Part shown: in pieces, positions 22,755 through 32,785 of the stretch | Layout of the letters: the number at the start of each line of letters is the position of its first letter | How positions within the stretch are numbered: the stretch's first letter is position 1 | Assembly: GCF_003334315.1 (NCBI RefSeq) | Contig: NZ_QOWR01000048.1 | Strand: one strand, 5' to 3' | DNA from: Escherichia coli | Lineage (GTDB): Bacteria; Pseudomonadota; Gammaproteobacteria; Enterobacterales; Enterobacteriaceae | DNA length: 36,812 bases | Made by a program: the position numbers and the translations under genes | Notes under the pieces: generated by a model | Databases searched by the model: none | The model's input: the letters and a program-made list of their open reading frames with translations, nothing else | Told to the model about the DNA's origin: nothing

Positions 22755-22860
22755 ACGGTTATAAATCAACATCTTGATTTATAAGCATGGAAATCCCCTG
22801 AGTGAAACAACGAATTGCTGTGTGTAGTCTTTGCCCATCTCCCACGATGGGCTTTTTTTT
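22755..22860 (+). ncRNA. rprA: RprA small regulatory RNA (rpoS translational activator)
   Basis: Sequence ACGGTTATAAATCAAC...GCCCATCTCCCACGATGGGCTTTTTTTT recognised as RprA, including its terminator hairpin and U-tail, between ydiK and ydiL. Confidence 0.93.
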
Positions 22861-22997
22861 AACATTTTTCCGCTTCGCTACCTCGCCCCTCACTCTTTCC
22901 AATAATGTTGCACAAGATACTGTGACTCTCTTCAAGCCGTCAGCAGGCTGATAATGTTATTTATATTTTATTGTTTATTTCATGCAGCCATTACACG

Positions 22998-23354
22998 ATG
23001 AACGCTTATGAACTCCAGGCACTTCGCCATATTTTTGCCATGACTATTGATGAATGCGCGACCTGGATTGCCCAGACCGGTGACAGTGAAAGCTGGCGTC
23101 AGTGGGAAAATGGCAAATGCGCCATTCCTGATCGTGTAGTCGAGCAACTGTTGGCTATGCGTCAGCAACGAAAAAAACATCTTCATGCCATCATAGAGAA
23201 AATAAATAACCGCATCGGCAACAACACCATGCGTTTTTTCCCCGACTTAACCGCGTTTCAACAAGTCTACCCTGATGGCAATTTTATTGACTGGAAGATC
23301 TATCAATCGGTAGCCGCTGAATTATATGCACACGATCTGGAGCGGCTTTGTTAA
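22998..23354 (+). CDS. ydiL: YdiL, uncharacterised protein
   Basis: Start at ATG 22998 (MNAYELQALRHIFAMTIDE...) giving 118 aa. The track ORF begins at an upstream TTG. Confidence 0.8.
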   Translation: MNAYELQALRHIFAMTIDECATWIAQTGDSESWRQWENGKCAIPDRVVEQLLAMRQQRKKHLHAIIEKINNRIGNNTMRFFPDLTAFQQVYPDGNFIDWKIYQSVAAELYAHDLERLC

Positions 23355-23453
23355 TTTCTCCACAAAAAGGAATTGTCGTTGTTACAACAATAATGAACGG
23401 ATACTGACACAACATCGCTACACTTTTTAAAACACCTTTGCTAAGTAGAACCT

Positions 23454-24668
23454 ATGAAAAATCCCTATTACCCTACCGCACTTGGGTTGTATTTTAATTA
23501 CCTGGTGCATGGTATGGGCGTCATTTTGATGAGCCTGAATATGGCCTCGCTGGAGACACTTTGGCAGACTAATGCCGCGGGTGTCTCGATAGTTATCTCA
23601 TCGCTGGGCATTGGTCGATTAAGTGTCTTGCTTTTTGCAGGATTATTATCCGATCGCTTTGGTCGCCGCCCTTTTATCATGCTCGGGATGTGCTGCTATA
23701 TGGCCTTCTTTTTTGGCATCCTGCAGACCAATAACATCATTATCGCTTATGTTTTTGGCTTTCTGGCGGGAATGGCAAACAGTTTTCTCGATGCAGGCAC
23801 TTATCCCAGTTTGATGGAAGCTTTTCCACGCTCACCTGGGACAGCCAATATTTTAATTAAAGCATTTGTTTCCAGCGGACAATTTTTATTACCGCTAATC
23901 ATTAGCCTGTTAGTGTGGGCTGAACTGTGGTTCGGTTGGTCCTTTATAATTGCTGCAGGCATTATGTTTATTAACGCTCTGTTTTTATACCGTTGTACGT
24001 TCCCACCCCATCCGGGTCATCGCTTACCTGTCATAAAGAAAACCACCAGCTCTACGGAACATCGCTGTTCAATTATCGATTTAGCCAGTTATACCTTATA
24101 TGGCTATATCTCAATGGCAACGTTTTATCTGGTTAGCCAGTGGCTGGCACAGTACGGACAATTTGTTGCAGGCATGTCATACACTATGTCGATTAAACTA
24201 CTCAGTATCTACACCGTCGGTTCGCTGCTTTGTGTATTTATTACCGCTCCACTCATTCGTAATACCGTTCGCCCAACAACATTACTGATGCTGTACACCT
24301 TTATCTCATTTATTGCTCTGTTTACCGTCTGCCTGCATCCCACATTTTATGTGGTGATAATATTTGCTTTTGTCATTGGTTTTACCTCTGCTGGAGGTGT
24401 TGTGCAAATTGGCCTGACGTTAATGGCTGAACGTTTCCCTTACGCTAAAGGTAAAGCTACAGGGATCTATTACAGTGCGGGCAGTATTGCGACCTTTACT
24501 ATTCCGTTGATTACGGCTCATCTGTCCCAAAGAAGTATTGCCGATATTATGTGGTTCGATACCGCCATCGCTGCCATCGGTTTTTTACTGGCACTGTTTA
24601 TCGGCTTACGCAGCCGCAAAAAAACGCGGCATCACTCGCTAAAGGAAAATGTCGCTCCGGGTGGGTAA
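23454..24668 (+). CDS. ydiM: YdiM, MFS-family transporter
   Basis: 404 aa, 12 predicted TM helices, MFS loop motif DRFGRRP. Paralogous to the adjacent YdiN. Confidence 0.9.
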   Translation: MKNPYYPTALGLYFNYLVHGMGVILMSLNMASLETLWQTNAAGVSIVISSLGIGRLSVLLFAGLLSDRFGRRPFIMLGMCCYMAFFFGILQTNNIIIAYVFGFLAGMANSFLDAGTYPSLMEAFPRSPGTANILIKAFVSSGQFLLPLIISLLVWAELWFGWSFIIAAGIMFINALFLYRCTFPPHPGHRLPVIKKTTSSTEHRCSIIDLASYTLYGYISMATFYLVSQWLAQYGQFVAGMSYTMSIKLLSIYTVGSLLCVFITAPLIRNTVRPTTLLMLYTFISFIALFTVCLHPTFYVVIIFAFVIGFTSAGGVVQIGLTLMAERFPYAKGKATGIYYSAGSIATFTIPLITAHLSQRSIADIMWFDTAIAAIGFLLALFIGLRSRKKTRHHSLKENVAPGG

Positions 24669-24894
24669 TGCAATATTCTTTTCAGGTCATGCAAGATCTT
24701 ACGGATAAATAACTCTTTCTGCGCTAACTAAGGAAAATCGCGATCAAAAACAAACTATGACATGCAATATTCCTGGAAACATAAACTTTATGCCATGTAC
24801 CCAGGGAAAATCATCTTCAGTATAGTAATTATGTAAACCGTCGAAGAACAATACGTACGGTAACGAAATTATCTTTCAGCAAGGAGCTGTGAAA

Positions 24895-26160
24895 ATGTCT
24901 CAAAATAAGGCTTTCAGCACGCCATTTATCCTGGCTGTTCTTTGTATTTACTTCAGCTACTTCCTGCACGGCATTAGTGTTATTACGCTTGCCCAAAACA
25001 TGTCATCTCTGGCGGAAAAGTTTTCCACTGACAACGCGGGCATTGCCTACTTAATTTCCGGTATTGGTTTGGGGCGATTGATCAGTATTTTATTCTTCGG
25101 TGTGATCTCCGATAAGTTTGGTCGTCGGGCGGTGATATTAATGGCAGTAATAATGTATCTGCTATTCTTCTTTGGTATTCCCGCTTGCCCGAATTTAACT
25201 CTCGCCTACGGTCTGGCAGTGTGCGTAGATATCGCTAACTCAGCGCTGGATACGGGTGGCTACCCCGCGCTCATGGAATGCTTTCCGAAAGCCTCTGGTT
25301 CGGCGGTCATACTGGTTAAAGCGATGGTGTCATTTGGGCAAATGTTCTACCCAATGCTGGTGAGCTATATGTTGCTCAATAATATCTGGTACGGCTATGG
25401 GCTGATTATTCCGGGTATTCTGTTTGTACTGATCACGCTGATGCTGTTGAAAAGCAAATTCCCCAGCCAGTTGGTGGACGCCAGCGTAGCTAATGAATTA
25501 CCGCAAATGAACAGCAAACCGTTAGTCTGGCTGGAAGGTGTTTCATCGGTACTGTTCGGTGTAGCCGCATTCTCGACCTTTTATGTGATTGTGGTGTGGA
25601 TGCCCAAATATGCGATGGCTTTTGCTGGTATGTCAGAAGCTGAGGCATTAAAAACCATCTCTTATTACAGTATGGGCTCGTTGGTCTGTGTCTTTATTTT
25701 TGCCGCACTACTGAAAAAAATGGTCCGGCCCATCTGGGCTAATGTATTTAACTCTGCACTGGCAACAATAACAGCAGCCATTATCTACCTGTACCCTTCT
25801 CCACTGGTGTGTAATGCCGGCGCCTTTGTTATCGGTTTCTCAGCAGCTGGCGGCATTTTACAGCTCGGTGTTTCGGTCATGTCAGAGTTTTTCCCAAAAA
25901 GCAAAGCCAAAGTCACCAGTATTTATATGATGATGGGTGGACTGGCTAACTTTGTTATTCCGCTGATTACCGGTTATCTGTCGAACATCGGCCTGCAATA
26001 TATCATTGTTCTCGATTTTACTTTCGCGCTGCTGGCCCTGATTACCGCAATTATTGTTTTTATCCGCTATTACCGCGTTTTTATTATTCCTGAGAATGAT
26101 GTGCGGTTTGGCGAGCGCAAATTTAGCACCCGGTTAAACACAATTAAGCATAGAGGTTAA
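24895..26160 (+). CDS. ydiN: YdiN, MFS-family transporter
   Basis: Start at ATG 24895, 8 nt after AAGGAG, giving 421 aa. MFS motif DKFGRRA. First gene of ydiN-ydiB-aroD. Confidence 0.9.
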
Positions 26161-26171
26161 AGGAGTTAATT

Positions 26172-27038
26172 ATGGATGTTACCGCAAAATACGAATTGAT
26201 TGGGTTGATGGCTTATCCTATCCGCCACAGTTTATCGCCTGAAATGCAGAATAAAGCCTTAGAAAAAGCGGGATTGCCATTTACCTATATGGCCTTCGAA
26301 GTGGATAACGATAGCTTTCCCGGAGCAATTGAAGGATTAAAAGCTCTAAAAATGCGCGGAACTGGTGTATCAATGCCGAACAAACAACTGGCGTGTGAAT
26401 ATGTTGATGAATTAACGCCAGCAGCCAAACTGGTGGGTGCCATCAACACCATCGTTAATGATGATGGCTACCTGCGCGGCTATAACACCGACGGCACGGG
26501 CCATATTCGAGCCATTAAAGAGAGCGGTTTTGATATCAAAGGCAAAACAATGGTGCTGTTAGGGGCCGGAGGTGCCTCAACGGCGATTGGCGCGCAGGGG
26601 GCAATTGAAGGTTTAAAAGAAATTAAACTCTTTAACCGTCGGGATGAGTTCTTCGATAAAGCCCTCGCCTTCGCGCAGCGGGTTAACGAAAACACCGATT
26701 GTGTCGTCACGGTTACCGATCTCGCCGATCAGCAAGCCTTTGCTGAAGCCCTGGCTTCCGCCGACATTTTAACCAATGGCACAAAAGTGGGTATGAAACC
26801 CCTTGAGAATGAATCATTGGTTAATGATATCAGTCTGTTACATCCGGGACTGCTGGTCACTGAATGCGTGTATAACCCGCATATGACGAAGTTATTGCAG
26901 CAGGCGCAACAAGCTGGTTGCAAAACGATTGATGGATACGGCATGTTGTTGTGGCAAGGGGCTGAACAGTTCACGTTATGGACTGGCAAAGATTTCCCTC
27001 TGGAATATGTTAAACAGGTCATGGGGTTCGGTGCCTGA
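26172..27038 (+). CDS. ydiB: YdiB, quinate/shikimate 5-dehydrogenase (NAD(P)-dependent)
   Basis: 288 aa [35 protein letters not shown]... with Rossmann motif GAGGAS. Confidence 0.97.
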
Positions 27039-27068
27039 CAGGCTGACCGCGTGCAGAAAGGGTAAAAA

Positions 27069-27827
27069 ATGAAAACCGTAACTGTAAAAGATCTCGTCAT
27101 TGGTGCGGGCGCACCTAAAATCATCGTCTCGCTGATGGCGAAAGATATCGCCCGCGTGAAATCCGAAGCTCTCGCCTATCGTGAAGCGGACTTTGATATT
27201 CTGGAATGGCGTGTGGACCACTTTGCCGACCTCTCCAATGTGGAGTCTGTCATGGCGGCGGCAAAAATTCTCCGTGAAACCATGCCAGAAAAACCGCTGC
27301 TGTTTACCTTCCGCAGTGCCAAAGAAGGCGGCGAGCAGGCGATTTCCACCGAGGCTTATATTGCTCTCAATCGTGCAGCCATCGACAGCGGCCTGGTTGA
27401 TATGATCGATCTGGAGTTATTTACCGGCGATGATCAGGTTAAAGAAACCGTCGCCTACGCCCACGCGCATGATGTGAAAGTTGTCATGTCCAACCATGAC
27501 TTCCATAAAACGCCGGAAGCCGAAGAAATCATTGCCCGTCTGCGCAAAATGCAATCCTTCGACGCCGATATTCCTAAGATTGCGCTGATGCCGCAAAGTA
27601 CCAGCGATGTGCTGACGTTGCTTGCCGCGACCCTGGAGATGCAGGAGCAGTATGCCGATCGTCCAATCATCACGATGTCGATGGCAAAAACTGGCGTAAT
27701 TTCTCGTCTGGCTGGTGAAGTATTTGGGTCGGCGGCAACTTTTGGTGCGGTAAAAAAAGCCTCTGCGCCAGGGCAAATCTCGGTAACTGATTTACGCACA
27801 GTATTAACTATTTTACATCAGGCATAA
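27069..27827 (+). CDS. aroD: AroD, type I 3-dehydroquinate dehydratase
   Basis: 252 aa [26 protein letters not shown]... with the Schiff-base lysine in KIALMPQ. Confidence 0.98.
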
Positions 27828-27837
27828 GCAATAATAT

Positions 27838-27865
27838 TTCGGCGGGAATATCCTCCCCCGCCGAA
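27838..27865 (+). terminator. Possible terminator hairpin after aroD
   Basis: 9-bp stem TTCGGCGGG...CCCGCCGAA 11 bp after the aroD stop, but followed by an A-run rather than a T-run, so assignment is tentative. Confidence 0.4.
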
Positions 27866-27971
27866 CTAAAAAAATATATTCAACCGTATTTAATAAAAAT
27901 ATTTCGTGAGTCTCTGTGCGCTAATTATCCATCTGGCGTAGGGAAAATCACACCTGAATCAGGAATTAACA

Positions 27972-29567
27972 ATGAAACCTGTAAAACCACCTCGTATTAA
28001 TGGACGAGTGCCGGTCCTGTCGGCACAGGAAGCGGTGAATTATATTCCCGACGAAGCAACACTTTGTGTGTTAGGCGCTGGCGGCGGTATTCTGGAAGCC
28101 ACCACGTTAATTACTGCTCTTGCTGATAAATATAAACAGACTCAAACGCCACGTAATTTATCGATTATTAGTCCAACAGGGCTTGGCGATCGCGCCGACC
28201 GCGGTATTAGTCCGCTGGCGCAAGAAGGTCTGCTGAAATGGGCATTATGCGGTCACTGGGGACAATCGCCGCGTATTTCTGATCTCGCAGAACAAAATAA
28301 AATTATTGCTTATAACTATCCACAAGGTGTACTTACACAAACCTTACGCGCCGCCGCAGCCCACCAGCCTGGTATTATTAGTGATATTGGCATCGGGACA
28401 TTTGTCGATCCACGCCAGCAAGGCGGCAAACTGAATGAAGTCACTAAAGAAGACCTGATTAAACTGGTCGAGTTTGATAACAAAGAATATCTCTATTACA
28501 AAGCGATTGCGCCAGATATCGCCTTCATTCGCGCTACCACCTGCGACAGCGAAGGCTACGCCACTTTTGAAGATGAGGTGATGTATCTCGACGCATTGGT
28601 TATTGCCCAGGCGGTGCACAATAACGGCGGTATTGTGATGATGCAGGTGCAGAAAATGGTTAAGAAAGCCACGCTGCATCCTAAATCTGTCCGTATTCCG
28701 GGTTATCTGGTGGATATTGTGGTGGTCGATCCGGATCAAACCCAACTGTATGGCGGTGCACCGGTTAACCGCTTTATTTCTGGTGACTTCACCCTTGATG
28801 ACAGTACCAAACTTAGCCTGCCCCTAAACCAACGTAAATTAGTTGCGCGGCGCGCATTATTCGAAATGCGTAAAGGCGCGGTGGGGAATGTCGGCGTCGG
28901 TATTGCTGACGGCATTGGCCTGGTCGCCCGAGAAGAAGGTTGTGCTGATGACTTTATTCTGACGGTAGAAACAGGTCCGATTGGCGGAATTACTTCACAG
29001 GGGATCGCCTTTGGCGCGAACGTGAATACCCGTGCCATTCTGGATATGACGTCCCAGTTTGATTTTTATCACGGTGGCGGTCTGGATGTTTGTTATTTGA
29101 GTTTTGCTGAAGTCGACCAGCACGGTAACGTCGGCGTGCATAAATTCAATGGTAAAATCATGGGCACCGGTGGATTTATTGATATCAGTGCCACTTCGAA
29201 GAAAATCATTTTCTGCGGCACATTAACTGCGGGCAGTTTAAAAACAGAAATTACCGACGGCAAATTAAATATCGTCCAGGAAGGACGGGTGAAGAAATTT
29301 ATTCGGGAACTACCGGAAATTACTTTCAGCGGAAAAATCGCTCTCGAGCGAGGGCTGGATGTTCGTTATATCACTGAGCGCGCAGTATTCACGCTGAAAG
29401 AAGACGGCCTGCATTTAATCGAAATCGCCCCTGGCGTCGATTTACAAAAAGATATTCTCGACAAAATGGATTTCACCCCAGTGATTTCGCCAGAACTCAA
29501 ACTGATGGACGAAAGATTATTTATCGATGCGGCGATGGGTTTTGTCCTGCCTGAAGCGGCTCATTAA
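27972..29567 (+). CDS. ydiF: YdiF, fused alpha/beta family-I CoA-transferase (acetate/short-chain acyl-CoA transferase)
   Basis: 531 aa, K-12 length, RBS AGGAAT upstream. Confidence 0.92.
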   Translation: MKPVKPPRINGRVPVLSAQEAVNYIPDEATLCVLGAGGGILEATTLITALADKYKQTQTPRNLSIISPTGLGDRADRGISPLAQEGLLKWALCGHWGQSPRISDLAEQNKIIAYNYPQGVLTQTLRAAAAHQPGIISDIGIGTFVDPRQQGGKLNEVTKEDLIKLVEFDNKEYLYYKAIAPDIAFIRATTCDSEGYATFEDEVMYLDALVIAQAVHNNGGIVMMQVQKMVKKATLHPKSVRIPGYLVDIVVVDPDQTQLYGGAPVNRFISGDFTLDDSTKLSLPLNQRKLVARRALFEMRKGAVGNVGVGIADGIGLVAREEGCADDFILTVETGPIGGITSQGIAFGANVNTRAILDMTSQFDFYHGGGLDVCYLSFAEVDQHGNVGVHKFNGKIMGTGGFIDISATSKKIIFCGTLTAGSLKTEITDGKLNIVQEGRVKKFIRELPEITFSGKIALERGLDVRYITERAVFTLKEDGLHLIEIAPGVDLQKDILDKMDFTPVISPELKLMDERLFIDAAMGFVLPEAAH

Positions 29568-29580
29568 CAGGAGTATAATG

Positions 29581-30732
29581 ATGGATTTTTCTTTAACTGA
29601 AGAACAAGAACTGCTGCTGGCCAGTATTCGCGAACTGATTACGACTAACTTTCCGGAAGAGTATTTCCGCACCTGCGATCAAAACGGGACATATCCGCGT
29701 GAGTTTATGCGGGCGCTGGCGGATAACGGTATTTCCATGCTTGGCGTGCCGGAAGAATTTGGTGGTATCCCTGCGGATTACGTCACCCAAATGCTGGCGC
29801 TGATGGAAGTGTCAAAATGCGGTGCTCCGGCATTTTTAATTACCAACGGTCAATGTATTCACAGTATGCGCCGTTTCGGTTCTGCAGAGCAGCTACGTAA
29901 AACGGCAGAAAGCACCCTGGAAACCGGCGACCCCGCCTATGCCCTGGCGTTGACGGAACCAGGTGCTGGCTCAGATAACAACAGTGCCACCACCACTTAC
30001 ACGCGTAAAAACGGCAAGGTTTACATCAACGGACAGAAAACCTTTATTACCGGTGCGAAAGAGTACCCGTATATGCTGGTGTTGGCGCGCGATCCGCAAC
30101 CGAAAGATCCCAAAAAAGCCTTCACCCTGTGGTGGGTCGACTCCAGTAAGCCCGGCATTAAGATTAACCCGCTGCATAAAATCGGCTGGCATATGCTCAG
30201 CACCTGCGAAGTCTATCTCGACAACGTGGAAGTTGAAGAGAGCGACATGGTGGGCGAAGAAGGAATGGGTTTCCTCAATGTGATGTACAACTTTGAGATG
30301 GAGCGCCTGATCAACGCCGCGCGCAGCACCGGCTTTGCCGAATGCGCCTTTGAAGATGCCGCCCGCTATGCCAACCAACGTATCGCTTTTGGTAAGCCCA
30401 TTGGTCATAACCAGATGATCCAGGAAAAACTGGCGCTGATGGCGATTAAGATTGACAACATGCGCAACATGGTGCTGAAAGTGGCATGGCAAGCCGATCA
30501 GCATCAGTCACTGCGCACCAGCGCGGCGCTGGCAAAACTGTATTGCGCACGTACCGCAATGGAAGTCATTGATGATGCGATTCAAATCATGGGCGGTCTG
30601 GGCTATACCGATGAAGCGCGCGTCTCCCGCTTCTGGCGTGATGTCCGTTGTGAACGTATCGGCGGCGGTACAGACGAAATTATGATTTACGTAGCAGGTC
30701 GGCAGATCCTGAAAGACTATCAGAACAAATAA
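29581..30732 (+). CDS. ydiO: YdiO, acyl-CoA dehydrogenase family protein (anaerobic enoyl-CoA reductase candidate)
   Basis: Start at MDFSLTEEQELLLASIRELI, after CAGGAG, giving 383 aa. The track ORF begins upstream inside ydiF. Confidence 0.9.
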   Translation: MDFSLTEEQELLLASIRELITTNFPEEYFRTCDQNGTYPREFMRALADNGISMLGVPEEFGGIPADYVTQMLALMEVSKCGAPAFLITNGQCIHSMRRFGSAEQLRKTAESTLETGDPAYALALTEPGAGSDNNSATTTYTRKNGKVYINGQKTFITGAKEYPYMLVLARDPQPKDPKKAFTLWWVDSSKPGIKINPLHKIGWHMLSTCEVYLDNVEVEESDMVGEEGMGFLNVMYNFEMERLINAARSTGFAECAFEDAARYANQRIAFGKPIGHNQMIQEKLALMAIKIDNMRNMVLKVAWQADQHQSLRTSAALAKLYCARTAMEVIDDAIQIMGGLGYTDEARVSRFWRDVRCERIGGGTDEIMIYVAGRQILKDYQNK

Positions 30733-30774: not shown

Positions 30775-31686
30775 TTATCCAACAAGACTTACCGGTTGAG
30801 GAAATTCAGATAGGATTTCTTGTTCCGCAAAACAGTTTTTAAATTGCCTGCGGTAATCGCTGGGTGAACAGCCGACATGGCGCAAAAACAGTTTGCCAAA
30901 GTGATCGACATTTTCATAACCCACACGCCAGGAGATCTCTGCCTGTGATAATTCAGTATTAGTGAGTAACCATTTCGCTTCCGTCATACACCGTTGAATA
31001 ACATAGTTAATTGGGGAAATACGATACTCTTTGGTAAATTCATGGCAAATATAACTGACGCTGGCACGAAATTTTTTCGATAACTGTTCTAAAGTGATTT
31101 TTTCGCGATAATTATTATTCAGATAGAAAAGAATATCTTTTATCAGAACATCTTTTTTAATATACCCCTGCTCCGAACGATAAGCATTTTTAAAGTTTTC
31201 GTAGTAAAGAATTGCTAATGTATAGGCAAATGCATCCCATAACGAAGATGTTTGGCTATTTTTACTTTGCGGCAAAATCACACTTAGCTCATTAAATAAG
31301 GTTTTAATGACTTCTTTTCCCTGCCCCGCGGCAATTACCGGACAAGAATGCGGTTGCAGTAGATGATTTTCCTCAGCCCCCTGAAACTGAAAGCCGTACA
31401 GCGCACAGGTACACGTCGTTGCCGGATCGTTAACGTCAGAGGCCACCGCATGCAGCCTGCCGCGTTCTATCACCACTATATCATCTGCATGCGCGACATA
31501 TAACGAAGAATCGATGGTAAACCTTGCCACCCCTTTCTTGACGTAAATCAGCTCGGTTTCATTGTCATGAACGTGATGTCCAGACTCCCATTTTGGATCA
31601 TCGCTAAATGCAAAACGTGAAAGCCGTGGCGTTTTACCAGCGACAAACAGCGTTTCACTGGCATTATCAAAACAGCGTTGATACAT
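30775..31686 (-). CDS. ydiP: YdiP, AraC/XylS-family transcriptional regulator
   Basis: 303 aa with N-terminal cupin-like region and C-terminal AraC-type helix-turn-helix (...QAEISWRVGYENVDHFGKLFLRHVGCSPSDYRRQF). Confidence 0.92.
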   Translation of the reverse strand: MYQRCFDNASETLFVAGKTPRLSRFAFSDDPKWESGHHVHDNETELIYVKKGVARFTIDSSLYVAHADDIVVIERGRLHAVASDVNDPATTCTCALYGFQFQGAEENHLLQPHSCPVIAAGQGKEVIKTLFNELSVILPQSKNSQTSSLWDAFAYTLAILYYENFKNAYRSEQGYIKKDVLIKDILFYLNNNYREKITLEQLSKKFRASVSYICHEFTKEYRISPINYVIQRCMTEAKWLLTNTELSQAEISWRVGYENVDHFGKLFLRHVGCSPSDYRRQFKNCFAEQEILSEFPQPVSLVG

Positions 31687-32001
31687 GACAACCTCCCTAT
31701 TCCATGAGCAAGCAAAAACAATATATGCCGGATAAAATACGGCGTGTATTGCGGTTATACAACCGCGTTTAGCGAGAGCTAAACAAGATTATTTACACTG
31801 AATGCAAGATTGTACGGTCATGGAATAACTATATTGCCGCAAATTGCACTTTTGTTTTAGCGATCGCATTTTTTTTGCAAGATTGTTGGCAAGGAAAACA
31901 GCTTGCTCCGTCGAAAACCCCGCACCGCTATCGCACACTATTTTCAGGCCATTTTTACCTTCCATCGGAGATGGTTCCGTATGCGACTCACAGGAGAAAT
32001 C

Positions 32002-32766
32002 ATGAAAATAATAACCTGCTTTAAGCTGGTGCCTGAAGAACAGGACATTGTTGTCACTCCAGAATACACCCTGAATTTCGACAATGCCGACGCCAAAATC
32101 AGCCAGTTCGATCTCAATGCCATTGAAGCTGCAAGCCAGCTTGCAACAGATGACGATGAGATAGCCGCGCTGACCGTTGGCGGCTCATTGTTGCAGAACT
32201 CGAAAGTGCGCAAAGACGTGCTATCCCGCGGGCCGCACAGCCTGTATATGGTGCAGGATGCACAACTTGAGCATGCACTGCCTCTCGATACCGCAAAAGC
32301 GCTGGCGGCAGCAGTTGAAAAGATCGGCTTCGATTTACTGATCTTTGGTGAAGGTTCCGGCGACCTTTATGCCCAGCAGGTTGGCTTGCTGGTCGGAGAA
32401 ATTCTGCAACTTCCGGTGATTAATGCAGTGAGTGCTATTCAGCGTCAGGGCAATACACTGGTGATTGAACGCACGCTTGAAGATGACGTTGAAGTTATTG
32501 AACTCTCTGTTCCAGCCGTGCTCTGCGTCACCTCCGATATTAACGTGCCACGCATTCCTTCGATGAAAGCCATTCTCGGCGCGGGTAAAAAACCGGTAAA
32601 TCAGTGGCAGGCAAGTGATATTGGCTGGAGCCAGAGCGCACCACTTGCTGAACTGACCGGCATTCGCGTACCGCCGCAAACAGAACGTAAGCACATCATT
32701 CTCGATAACGATTCGCCGGAGGCCATTGCCGAGCTGGCGGAACATCTGAAGAAAGCCCTGAACTGA
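32002..32766 (+). CDS. ydiQ: YdiQ, electron-transfer flavoprotein beta-subunit homologue (EtfB/FixA-like)
   Basis: Start at MKIITCFKLVPEEQDIVV, after CAGGAG, giving 254 aa. The track ORF is an upstream extension. Confidence 0.9.
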   Translation: MKIITCFKLVPEEQDIVVTPEYTLNFDNADAKISQFDLNAIEAASQLATDDDEIAALTVGGSLLQNSKVRKDVLSRGPHSLYMVQDAQLEHALPLDTAKALAAAVEKIGFDLLIFGEGSGDLYAQQVGLLVGEILQLPVINAVSAIQRQGNTLVIERTLEDDVEVIELSVPAVLCVTSDINVPRIPSMKAILGAGKKPVNQWQASDIGWSQSAPLAELTGIRVPPQTERKHIILDNDSPEAIAELAEHLKKALN

Positions 32767-32785
32767 AGCCTACGGAGAAGAAACG

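Follow-up and report, generated by a model that had tools for sequence, protein, structure and literature searches.

Two genes for transporters of the major facilitator superfamily (MFS), ydiM and ydiN, lie side by side upstream of ydiB and aroD in Escherichia coli, and the locus raises the questions of what the two proteins carry, how the genes came to be neighbours and whether they belong with the genes that follow. The pair was examined in a stretch of 36 812 nucleotides (contig NZ_QOWR01000048.1; hereafter the window), which is a segment of the E. coli chromosome with the order ydiK-rprA-ydiL-ydiM-ydiN-ydiB-aroD-ydiF-ydiO-ydiP-ydiQRST-fadK. An initial annotation, made from the sequence alone, had placed the pair at positions 23454–26160, which is correct according to the open reading frames (ORFs) and the RefSeq annotation. 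We consider it probable (roughly 0.6) that YdiM and YdiN transport hydroaromatic carboxylates for use by YdiB and AroD in the cytoplasm, the exact substrate, direction and proton coupling being what we infer from context.

The gene neighbourhood carries this reading. The sample consisted of 80 species-level loci, taken from the top of a list of 405 hits in order of similarity to YdiM, and YdiN-like proteins from outside the Enterobacterales were sampled through four look-ups. Genes in the loci were assigned by tblastn with the window proteins and by a few NCBIfam scans. A homologue of ydiB, aroD or both was found beside the transporter gene in 75 of the 80 loci, from the Enterobacterales, Sutterella, Lactobacillaceae, Enterococcus, Paenibacillus and Sporolactobacillus, and the same adjacency was also seen in L084, L087, L089 and L091. 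In Sutterella, one of the five exceptions, ydiN-ydiB-aroD follows at a distance of about 15 kb. A YdiN relative in Telmatospirillum (51% identical) is accompanied by genes for a TetR regulator, a type II dehydroquinase, a shikimate dehydrogenase and a QuiC1-like dehydroshikimate dehydratase, a neighbourhood that is a textbook quinate/shikimate catabolic cluster. The role linked to quinate and shikimate that had been proposed from the E. coli gene order alone is borne out by this wider context, from the Enterobacterales to the Firmicutes, and a predicted function in quinate/shikimate transport is well supported by it.

The paralogy of the two genes and their linkage to shikimate genes are already known, having been described since 2006–2009 and treated by phylogenomics in 2023, and the initial observation as stated adds nothing to the literature. 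Co-induction of ydiN, ydiB and aroD under carbon limitation led to the proposal of YdiN as a transporter of shikimate or by-products (Johansson and Liden 2006, as summarised in PMC4585142). A YdiL/YdiM/YdiN-Aro module was predicted by Hu et al. 2009, with shikimate-related phenotypes for the ydiN and ydiB deletions (PMC2672614), and deletion of ydiN increased the shikimate titre 1.3-fold, as did deletion of shiA (PMC8788726). Khalfaoui-Hassani et al. 2023, in PLoS One, call ydiN a paralogue of ydiM and report 75–86% of YdiM/N homologues near shikimate-pathway genes, with a Firmicute-rich distribution (PMC10588857).

The genes at the centre of the locus, with the evidence for each, are the following.

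22998–23354, plus strand: ydiL, a small helix-turn-helix (HTH) protein of the YdiL/Aca2 family (RefSeq annotation, PDB match, synteny)
23454–24668, plus strand: ydiM, MFS transporter of 404 amino acids (aa) (Pfam MFS_1, motif A, orthologues, tree)
24669–24894, plus strand: ydiM-ydiN spacer of 226 bp with conserved boxes (alignment of 9 spacers, motif statistics)
24895–26160, plus strand: ydiN, MFS transporter of 421 aa (Pfam MFS_1, motif A, orthologues)
26172–27038, plus strand: ydiB, NAD(P)-dependent quinate/shikimate dehydrogenase (RefSeq annotation, locus context)
27069–27827, plus strand: aroD, type I 3-dehydroquinate dehydratase (RefSeq annotation; homologue in the cassettes)

The ydiN ORF opens at a GTG at 24889, while the RefSeq start is the ATG at 24895; both end at 26160. 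ydiN is the first gene of a tightly packed run, ydiN-ydiB-aroD-ydiF-ydiO, with gaps of 11 bp (ydiN-ydiB), 30 bp (ydiB-aroD) and 13 bp (ydiF-ydiO). A match to positions 22900–27900 of the window was obtained in each of the 5426 complete E. coli genomes in the collection, with ydiL, ydiM, ydiN, ydiB and aroD annotated there. Identity to K-12 over these positions is 98.5%, and the K-12 map of the region reads ydiJ (minus strand), ydiK, rprA, ydiL, ydiM, ydiN, ydiB, aroD, ydiF, ydiO and ydiP (minus strand).

In the arrangement that this suggests, the cargo crossing the inner membrane would be quinate, shikimate, 3-dehydroshikimate or their reduced products, and transport would be proton-coupled acid uptake, as in typical MFS carboxylate symporters. 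ydiN would be the first gene of a transcription unit, ydiN-ydiB-aroD-ydiF-ydiO, expressed from the conserved 226-bp spacer, and ydiL-ydiM would form a separate pair of regulator and transporter. YdiM and YdiN might then differ in substrate, for example quinate versus shikimate or dehydroshikimate, or in direction, with the substrate brought in by one and the reduced product let out by the other.

Several points weigh against a hydroaromatic transport role. The 80 loci are taxonomically clustered, and the counts describe lineages rather than independent events. E. coli is not known to grow on quinate or shikimate. ShiA, the established shikimate importer, belongs to a different MFS family and is 20% identical. 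The best NCBIfam scores for the two proteins were 39–64 bits, against cut-offs of 221–418, and neither is recognised by a curated family model there. In the literature we found titre and expression data and no direct transport assay for YdiM or YdiN, and polarity on aroD may account for the aromatic auxotrophy of strains deleted for ydiN or ydiB. Finally, deletion of ydiM slows 64Cu uptake and impairs the bo3 oxidase, and YdiM is entered in TCDB as a putative exporter of isoprenol (PMC10588857).

The copper and oxidase phenotypes could mean that YdiM is mainly a copper importer for biogenesis of the bo3 quinol oxidase, with an incidental or indirect link to the shikimate genes, the more so as bo3-dependent growth was lost and haem content altered in the deletion strain. 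The authors of that study detect no metal motif of the CcoA type and themselves describe the link to shikimate genes (PMC10588857). The copper effect could also be indirect, for instance via catechol-type chelators formed from dehydroshikimate. Moreover, the transporter is found inside ydiB-MFS-aroD operons of lactobacilli and enterococci, which are not known to have a bo3 oxidase, and a primary copper role appears quite improbable.

A second possibility is that the proteins are efflux pumps rather than uptake systems, YdiN for quinate and dehydroshikimate by-products and YdiM for isoprenol or other solvents. YdiN was proposed by Johansson and Liden as an exporter of aromatic by-products (PMC4585142), PMC10588857 cites sensitivity of a ydiM deletion to isoprenol, and several cassettes contain two or three MFS genes, as would fit one importer and one exporter. 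Other cassettes (Klebsiella, Pantoea, Paenibacillus L061 and some Enterococcus) combine a single MFS gene with cytoplasmic enzymes of catabolic type and a LysR activator, an arrangement that needs uptake, and deletion of ydiN raises extracellular shikimate in the same way as deletion of the importer gene shiA (PMC8788726). We consider efflux as the sole function unlikely, and uptake of hydroaromatic acids remains the reading followed here.

Gene number varies most in the Lactobacillaceae, where L052, L055, L082 and other loci contain two or three ydiB paralogues and up to three MFS genes of the family, together with one aroD and one flavin reductase gene. This multiplicity suggests several hydroaromatic substrates or several steps.

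The relationship between the two transporters was clear from the pairwise alignment. YdiM and YdiN had been described as alike along their whole length, and BLASTP gave 37% identity and 59% positives over 383 aa with one gap (E = 1e-85), which is far beyond chance and shows specific paralogy. The snippet quoted in the initial annotation is no proof of this by itself because it contains the universal MFS motif A (G-x-x-x-D-R/K-x-G-R-R/K). This motif is found as GLLSDRFGRR at residue 63 of YdiM and is present at residue 69 of YdiN, and also occurs as GHFGDRLGRK in ShiA, which is only 20% identical overall. Pfam MFS_1 matched both halves of each protein, at residues 12–329 (E = 2e-26) and 249–394 of YdiM and at residues 18–335 (E = 4e-27) and 309–389 of YdiN, and a crude Kyte-Doolittle scan (19-residue window, threshold 1.5) detected 8 hydrophobic segments in YdiM and 11 in YdiN. 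Across the Enterobacteriaceae, Yersiniaceae and Pectobacteriaceae, YdiM orthologues are 59–84% and YdiN orthologues 75–90% identical.

Assignment within the superfamily was less precise. TCDB files YdiM and YdiN as 2.A.1.15.12 and 2.A.1.15.13 (PMC10588857). The cut-off of TIGR00895 (418.55) was not reached by YdiM (39.0 bits) or YdiN (41.3 bits). For TIGR00883, the metabolite:H+ symporter family of ShiA (cut-off 443.45), YdiN scored 22.5 bits and YdiM was unmatched. A sequence search of the PDB retrieved EmrD for YdiM (E = 6e-4) and nothing for YdiN, and no solved close relative was found there.

The initial annotation took the pair to be a tandem duplication, and the two genes are indeed neighbours with the same orientation, whose products align from end to end at 37% identity. 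A duplication at this locus in the enterobacterial lineage, followed by divergence, is nonetheless not supported by the relationships of the proteins. In Klebsiella, Pantoea, Phytobacter, Edaphovirga and Mangrovibacter a compact ydiB-MFS-aroD cassette encodes a single transporter, to which YdiM is 59–70% identical, and YdiM is 43–58% identical to the transporter of the corresponding cassette in the Lactobacillaceae, Enterococcus, Paenibacillus and Sporolactobacillus. Its identity to YdiN is only about 36–37%, below that to cassette transporters of other orders and phyla. A neighbour-joining tree was built from 89 dereplicated proteins (393 columns, 200 bootstraps) with ShiA as outgroup. The YdiN clade was recovered with 100% bootstrap support, YdiM was nested among the cassette transporters, and YdiM and YdiN were joined to the exclusion of Firmicute sequences in none of the 200 replicates. 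The tree-building method is a basic one, and rapid early change in YdiN could imitate or exaggerate its isolation.

Gene order in related families also argues against duplication in place. In ten loci from Yersinia, Serratia, Brenneria, Prodigiosinella and Symbiopectobacterium, a gene for a LysR protein of 300 aa lies on the minus strand between ydiM and ydiN, which in these Yersiniaceae and Pectobacteriaceae are 1.6–1.9 kb apart. Orthologues of this LysR protein (33–67% identity) were found in almost every cassette locus and in 49 of the 80 loci overall, after aroD in Klebsiella and Pantoea and divergent from ydiB in the Firmicutes. Escherichia, Citrobacter, Kosakonia and Intestinirhabdus have no such gene at the locus. 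A search for a LysR pseudogene remnant in the spacers of E. coli, Citrobacter, Kosakonia and Intestinirhabdus and in the whole window gave chance-level hits only, so the deletion was either clean or too old to see. Neither DNA-level similarity nor a repeat scar was detected between ydiM and ydiN.

The simplest reading of these relationships is that ydiM and ydiN are anciently diverged paralogues, and that the split between them predates the sharing of the cassette between phyla. As a LysR gene separates the two in the Yersiniaceae and Pectobacteriaceae, their adjacency in E. coli would be secondary, most simply through loss of that gene in the Enterobacteriaceae. Tandem duplicates would be expected to be each other's closest relatives and to be adjacent ancestrally, and neither is the case for this pair. 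Sporolactobacillus does have an M-like and an N-like MFS gene in tandem, and an old tandem event in the history of the family is possible; duplication at the enterobacterial locus is very improbable indeed.

The base composition of the pair could be taken as a sign of recent foreign origin, for example from low-GC Firmicutes. The two genes had been judged by eye to be more AT-rich than their flanks. Their GC contents of 0.446 (ydiM) and 0.455 (ydiN) do fall 4–5 points below that of the window (0.494) and below those of ydiB (0.476), aroD (0.507) and ydiK (0.549, also a membrane-protein gene), but ydiL is equally low (0.459). The family is also rich in Firmicutes, as noted in PMC10588857 as well. 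Codon usage tells against such an origin. GC content at the third codon position (GC3) was 0.462 for ydiM and 0.524 for ydiN, in a window range of 0.39–0.62, and the codon adaptation index (CAI), with weights from 27 K-12 genes for ribosomal proteins and elongation factors, was 0.304 and 0.358, compared with a window mean of 0.383 (sd 0.070); both measures are within the spread of the neighbours. The deficit sits at codon position 1, where GC is 0.44–0.46 versus about 0.59 elsewhere, and Phe, Ile, Tyr, Asn, Lys and Met make up 32–36% of YdiM and YdiN versus about 23% of the products of other genes. The low raw GC is therefore real, the codon usage is ordinary, and the AT-richness reflects the amino-acid composition of hydrophobic membrane proteins rather than foreign codon usage. 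Moreover, ydiM and ydiN occur in all 5426 E. coli genomes and across the Enterobacteriaceae, Yersiniaceae and Pectobacteriaceae, with a GC3 that tracks host and neighbours (0.49–0.54 in Yersinia, 0.60–0.64 in Citrobacter and 0.73–0.75 in Intestinirhabdus). A recent foreign origin is very unlikely, and any transfer of ydiM/ydiN between phyla was ancient. The stretches of lowest GC in the window are found elsewhere, at 7001–8000 (0.356–0.382), at 9501–10000 (0.40) and in ydiP (0.417, GC3 0.388), all below ydiM and ydiN.

The cassette loci also bear on the genes that follow aroD in E. coli, which are listed here with the remaining features.

22757–22860: rprA, small RNA gene, between ydiK and ydiL (K-12 annotation)
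27972–29567, plus strand: ydiF, CoA transferase (annotation)
29581–30732, plus strand: ydiO, acyl-CoA dehydrogenase/enoyl-CoA reductase type (annotation)
30775–31686, minus strand: ydiP, AraC-family regulator (annotation)
31803–31884, plus strand: two TGCAAGATT(GT) boxes, 73 bp apart, in the ydiP-ydiQ spacer
from 31903, plus strand: ydiQ ORF, one of the set ydiQRST (31903–35359) of electron transfer flavoprotein (ETF) beta/alpha, FixC and FixX types
32786–33724, plus strand: ydiR, with ydiQ the ETF beta/alpha pair (ORFs)
33780–35069, plus strand: ydiS, FixC-type oxidoreductase (ORFs)
35066–35359, plus strand: ydiT, FixX-type ferredoxin (ORFs)
35416–36691, plus strand: fadK (ydiD), acyl-CoA ligase, cut by an IS1 end at 36692 (translation)

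The true start of ydiQ is probably about 30 codons inside the ORF that begins at 31903. A terminator hairpin of rprA is found at 22833–22852, followed by a T run.

In every complete locus, the core lysR-ydiB-MFS-aroD was joined by one of three non-homologous modules for the reduction of C=C bonds. Module A, in 25 cassette loci from Klebsiella, Pantoea, Enterococcus, Paenibacillus and Sporolactobacillus vineae, is a two-domain Fe-S flavoenzyme of 660–690 aa of the FadH/old yellow enzyme (OYE) type, encoded directly upstream of ydiB. Its best NCBIfam match was BaiCD (448–469 bits, under the cut-off), and its best PDB matches were E. coli 2,4-dienoyl-CoA reductase (1ps9, E = 2.5e-63), OYE ene-reductases and 2-naphthoyl-CoA reductase. 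Module B combines an acyl-CoA dehydrogenase and ETF with CoA activation and extends from Escherichia to Yersinia, Sutterella and Sporolactobacillus sp. CQH2019; YdiF and YdiO were encoded after aroD in all 33 ydiL-type loci that were long enough, followed by ydiP and ydiQ where the locus reaches that far. Module C, found after aroD in 13 Lactobacillaceae loci, consists of ApbE and a FAD_binding_2 flavin reductase of 796 aa. One Levilactobacillus locus (L054) gave a weak match to module A together with module C.

A reductase module was detected by tblastn in 71 of 75 loci. Three of the other four (L006, L057 and L061) are cut at the end of the locus or contig. The fourth, Sporolactobacillus sp. 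CQH2019 (L048), was resolved by NCBIfam, which identified fixB, fixX, lysR, an acyl-CoA dehydrogenase gene, an etfB-like gene, ydiB, aroD and two MFS genes, together with a ydiS-type fixC (608 bits, cut-off 466) and a FadK-type ligase (767 bits, cut-off 736). In S. vineae, of the same genus, the FadH/OYE enzyme takes the place of these dehydrogenase and ETF genes.

Outside the Enterobacterales, the full set of ydi genes can be found together. Two metagenomic contigs (L084 and L091) contain ydi genes in tight same-strand runs, either ydiN, ydiF, ydiO, ydiQ, ydiR and ydiB, or ydiN, ydiB, aroD, ydiF and ydiO with a divergent ydiQRST-fadK. L091 has an overlap of 98.8% identity with a contig of Sutterella wadsworthensis, and S. 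wadsworthensis encodes a ydiM-like gene and ydiN-ydiB-aroD-ydiF-ydiO-ydiQRST-fadK, 51–83% identical to E. coli, adjoined by an AraC gene, a two-component system and two flavocytochrome-type reductases. Homologues of ydiQRST therefore adjoin ydiN-ydiB-aroD in Sutterella (L091) and the cassette in Sporolactobacillus (L048), and both clusters include a FadK-type ligase.

A repeated sequence is common to two spacers of the E. coli cluster. The ydiM-ydiN spacer contains ATGCAATATT at 24668 and 24762, ATGCAAGAT at 24689, ATGCCATGTA near 24790 and GTATAGTAAT near 24822, and TGCAAGATT, which shares its motif with this spacer, occurs twice before ydiQ. The 9-mer ATGCAAKAT was found four times in the window, always between genes (three copies in the ydiM-ydiN spacer at 24668–24771 and one in the ydiP-ydiQ spacer), with 1.19 expected and four reached in none of 100 shuffles. 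The ATGCAATATT 10-mer with one mismatch allowed was not enriched across the window (4 found, 4.7 expected); only exact degenerate 9-mers are enriched, and the weight comes mainly from conservation between genera. In an alignment of nine spacers from Escherichia, Citrobacter, Kosakonia and Intestinirhabdus the boxes were conserved, as they were in the ydiP-ydiQ spacer of these genera, and one copy was found in the lysR-ydiN spacer of Serratia, Yersinia, Brenneria and relatives. Citrobacter, Kosakonia, Intestinirhabdus and Serratia have one more box, about 95 bp upstream of ydiL, which E. coli lacks.

The 226-bp spacer, whose position is occupied by the LysR gene in Yersinia and Serratia, is likely to be a regulated promoter region of ydiN. 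A scan of positions 22500–28100 for consensus sigma-70 promoters and terminators gave nothing above chance, with neither on the plus strand of the spacer, so transcript boundaries are those that we infer from gene spacing. The TGCAAKAT boxes are a candidate operator for a common regulator, possibly YdiP or YdiL. YdiP, whose homologue is divergent from ydiN in L084, is a candidate regulator of the cluster. YdiL corresponds to PDB 1s4k (E = 4e-47) and is matched by four structures of Aca2, an anti-CRISPR-associated HTH repressor, at E of about 1e-14, with no match to an NCBIfam model. Because of this homology and the constant place of ydiL before ydiM in every ydiL-type locus, YdiL may autoregulate ydiL-ydiM.

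The alternating reductase modules, the module swap within Sporolactobacillus, the common TGCAAKAT box and the full ydi set of S. wadsworthensis together raise the possibility, which we put forward tentatively, that ydiL-ydiM-ydiN-ydiB-aroD-ydiF-ydiO-ydiP-ydiQRST-fadK is one regulon for the reductive use of plant hydroaromatic acids. Quinate and shikimate would be imported by YdiM and YdiN and interconverted to 3-dehydroshikimate or shikimate by YdiB and AroD, after which the conjugated C=C bond of shikimate or 3-dehydroshikimate would be reduced as an electron sink. In E. coli we propose that the reduction would take place at the level of the CoA ester, with activation by YdiF or FadK, YdiO as the reductase and electrons supplied by YdiQRST. 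According to decades-old reports (Whiting and Coggins), cider and plant lactobacilli reduce quinate and shikimate to dihydroshikimate and dihydroxycyclohexane-carboxylate.

Three considerations count against a single regulon. The LysR regulator was lost in E. coli, and the action of YdiO on a hydroaromatic (shikimate-derived) CoA ester is itself a proposal. In addition, ydiFO, ydiQRST and fadK are conventionally assigned to the anaerobic breakdown of fatty acids by beta-oxidation (PMC3967523, citing Campbell et al. 2003). Our search of the literature, with incomplete coverage, found nothing joining ydiFO, ydiQRST or fadK to ydiB and aroD or to shikimate or quinate, and searches on dihydroshikimate or quinate in lactobacilli and on cyclohexanecarboxylate or shikimate in the gut returned nothing relevant.

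The pattern of reductase modules goes beyond the initial observation and suggests a testable lead. It is an old observation that bacteria of the gut and of cider convert quinate and shikimate by reduction to saturated cyclohexane-carboxylates, which are precursors of urinary hippurate. If the one-regulon proposal is true, some ten y-genes of E. coli whose function has long been uncertain (ydiL, M, N, B, F, O, P, Q–T and fadK) would form one pathway, the genes behind this reduction could be tested in E. coli, Klebsiella, Enterococcus and Lactiplantibacillus, and the ydiB- and ydiN-dependent quinate and dehydroshikimate by-products met by metabolic engineers would be explained.

The strain examined carries changes of its own in the cluster. 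Codon 112 of ydiN (25228–25230) is GAT (Asp) in place of the GGT (Gly) of K-12, a glycine conserved almost without exception in the family (G106 in YdiM numbering). Of the 5230 complete E. coli genomes with a match to the surrounding 61-mer, none matched it exactly, which makes G112D a private allele; the change may abolish function or may be an error of sequencing. fadK is interrupted by the IS1 end at 36692–36812 (GGTAATGACTCCAACTTACTGATAGTG...), and the last 123 bases of the window match IS1, which is found at a median of 10 places per E. coli genome. The two lesions, IS1 in fadK and G112D in ydiN, are in the same gene cluster.

Elsewhere, ydiM and ydiN are often disrupted in nature. Less than 80% of 22900–27900 is present in 110 of the 5426 E. 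coli genomes; examples include IS903B in ydiM of strain CP53, whose sequence otherwise agrees with the window at about 100% identity, insertions of IS1, and a deletion in strain MB50 that spares only aroD and part of ydiB. Many clusters of truncated YdiM/YdiN proteins (245–344 aa) have hundreds of members each. In two Symbiopectobacterium loci (L029, 10805–12049; L059, 7467–8588) ydiN contains internal stops, with ydiM, lysR, ydiB, aroD and ydiF still alignable, which looks like pseudogenisation in the reduced genomes of insect symbionts. A 668-aa fusion of YdiN and YdiB (P0128; MFS_1, Shikimate_dh_N and SDH_C) from one Logan contig is probably read-through of the 11-bp ydiN-ydiB gap in a single assembly.

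Among the closest known systems is the YdiM/YdiN/YfkL subfamily of Khalfaoui-Hassani et al. 2023, which comprises the same proteins in a ydiB>aroD>aroK neighbourhood and includes the single Klebsiella gene between ydiB and aroD; the LysR regulator and its loss in the Enterobacteriaceae, the alternating ene-reductase modules, the TGCAAKAT boxes and the Sutterella supercluster were not found in the excerpt of that work. Respiratory growth of the gut bacteria Eggerthella lenta and S. wadsworthensis has been demonstrated in which shikimate is reduced at its enoate bond, yielding hydroshikimate (bioRxiv 10.1101/2022.12.26.521950). In the excerpt of that preprint these reductions are credited to FAD_binding_2 flavin reductases, and a link to the ydi genes or an MFS transporter was not found there.

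Of the characterized transporters, the aromatic acid:H+ symporters (TC 2.A.1.15; PcaK, MhpT; TIGR00895) resemble YdiM and YdiN in their TCDB placement (PMC10588857) and in the presence of TIGR00895 among the top weak hits. They differ in that YdiM and YdiN reach only 39–41 bits against the 418.55 required, and in that the presumed substrates of YdiM and YdiN are alicyclic hydroxy-acids. ShiA, a shikimate/dehydroshikimate:H+ symporter, has in common with them membership of the MFS, motif A, the presumed class of substrate and the effect of deletion on titre (PMC8788726). However, ShiA is about 20% identical to YdiM and YdiN, belongs to another MFS family and is encoded next to amn in K-12, unlinked to ydiB or aroD.

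For the cluster as a whole, comparable systems are those in which an imported unsaturated acid is reduced as an electron sink, namely caiTABCDE with fixABCX in E. coli (carnitine/crotonobetaine) and CarABCDE in Acetobacterium woodii (caffeate). Like the genes from ydiN to fadK, they bring together a transporter, a CoA transferase, a CoA ligase, an enoyl-CoA reductase of the acyl-CoA dehydrogenase type and an ETF/FixCX set. The ydi cluster differs in its substrate and in the addition of a dehydrogenase, YdiB, and a dehydratase, AroD.

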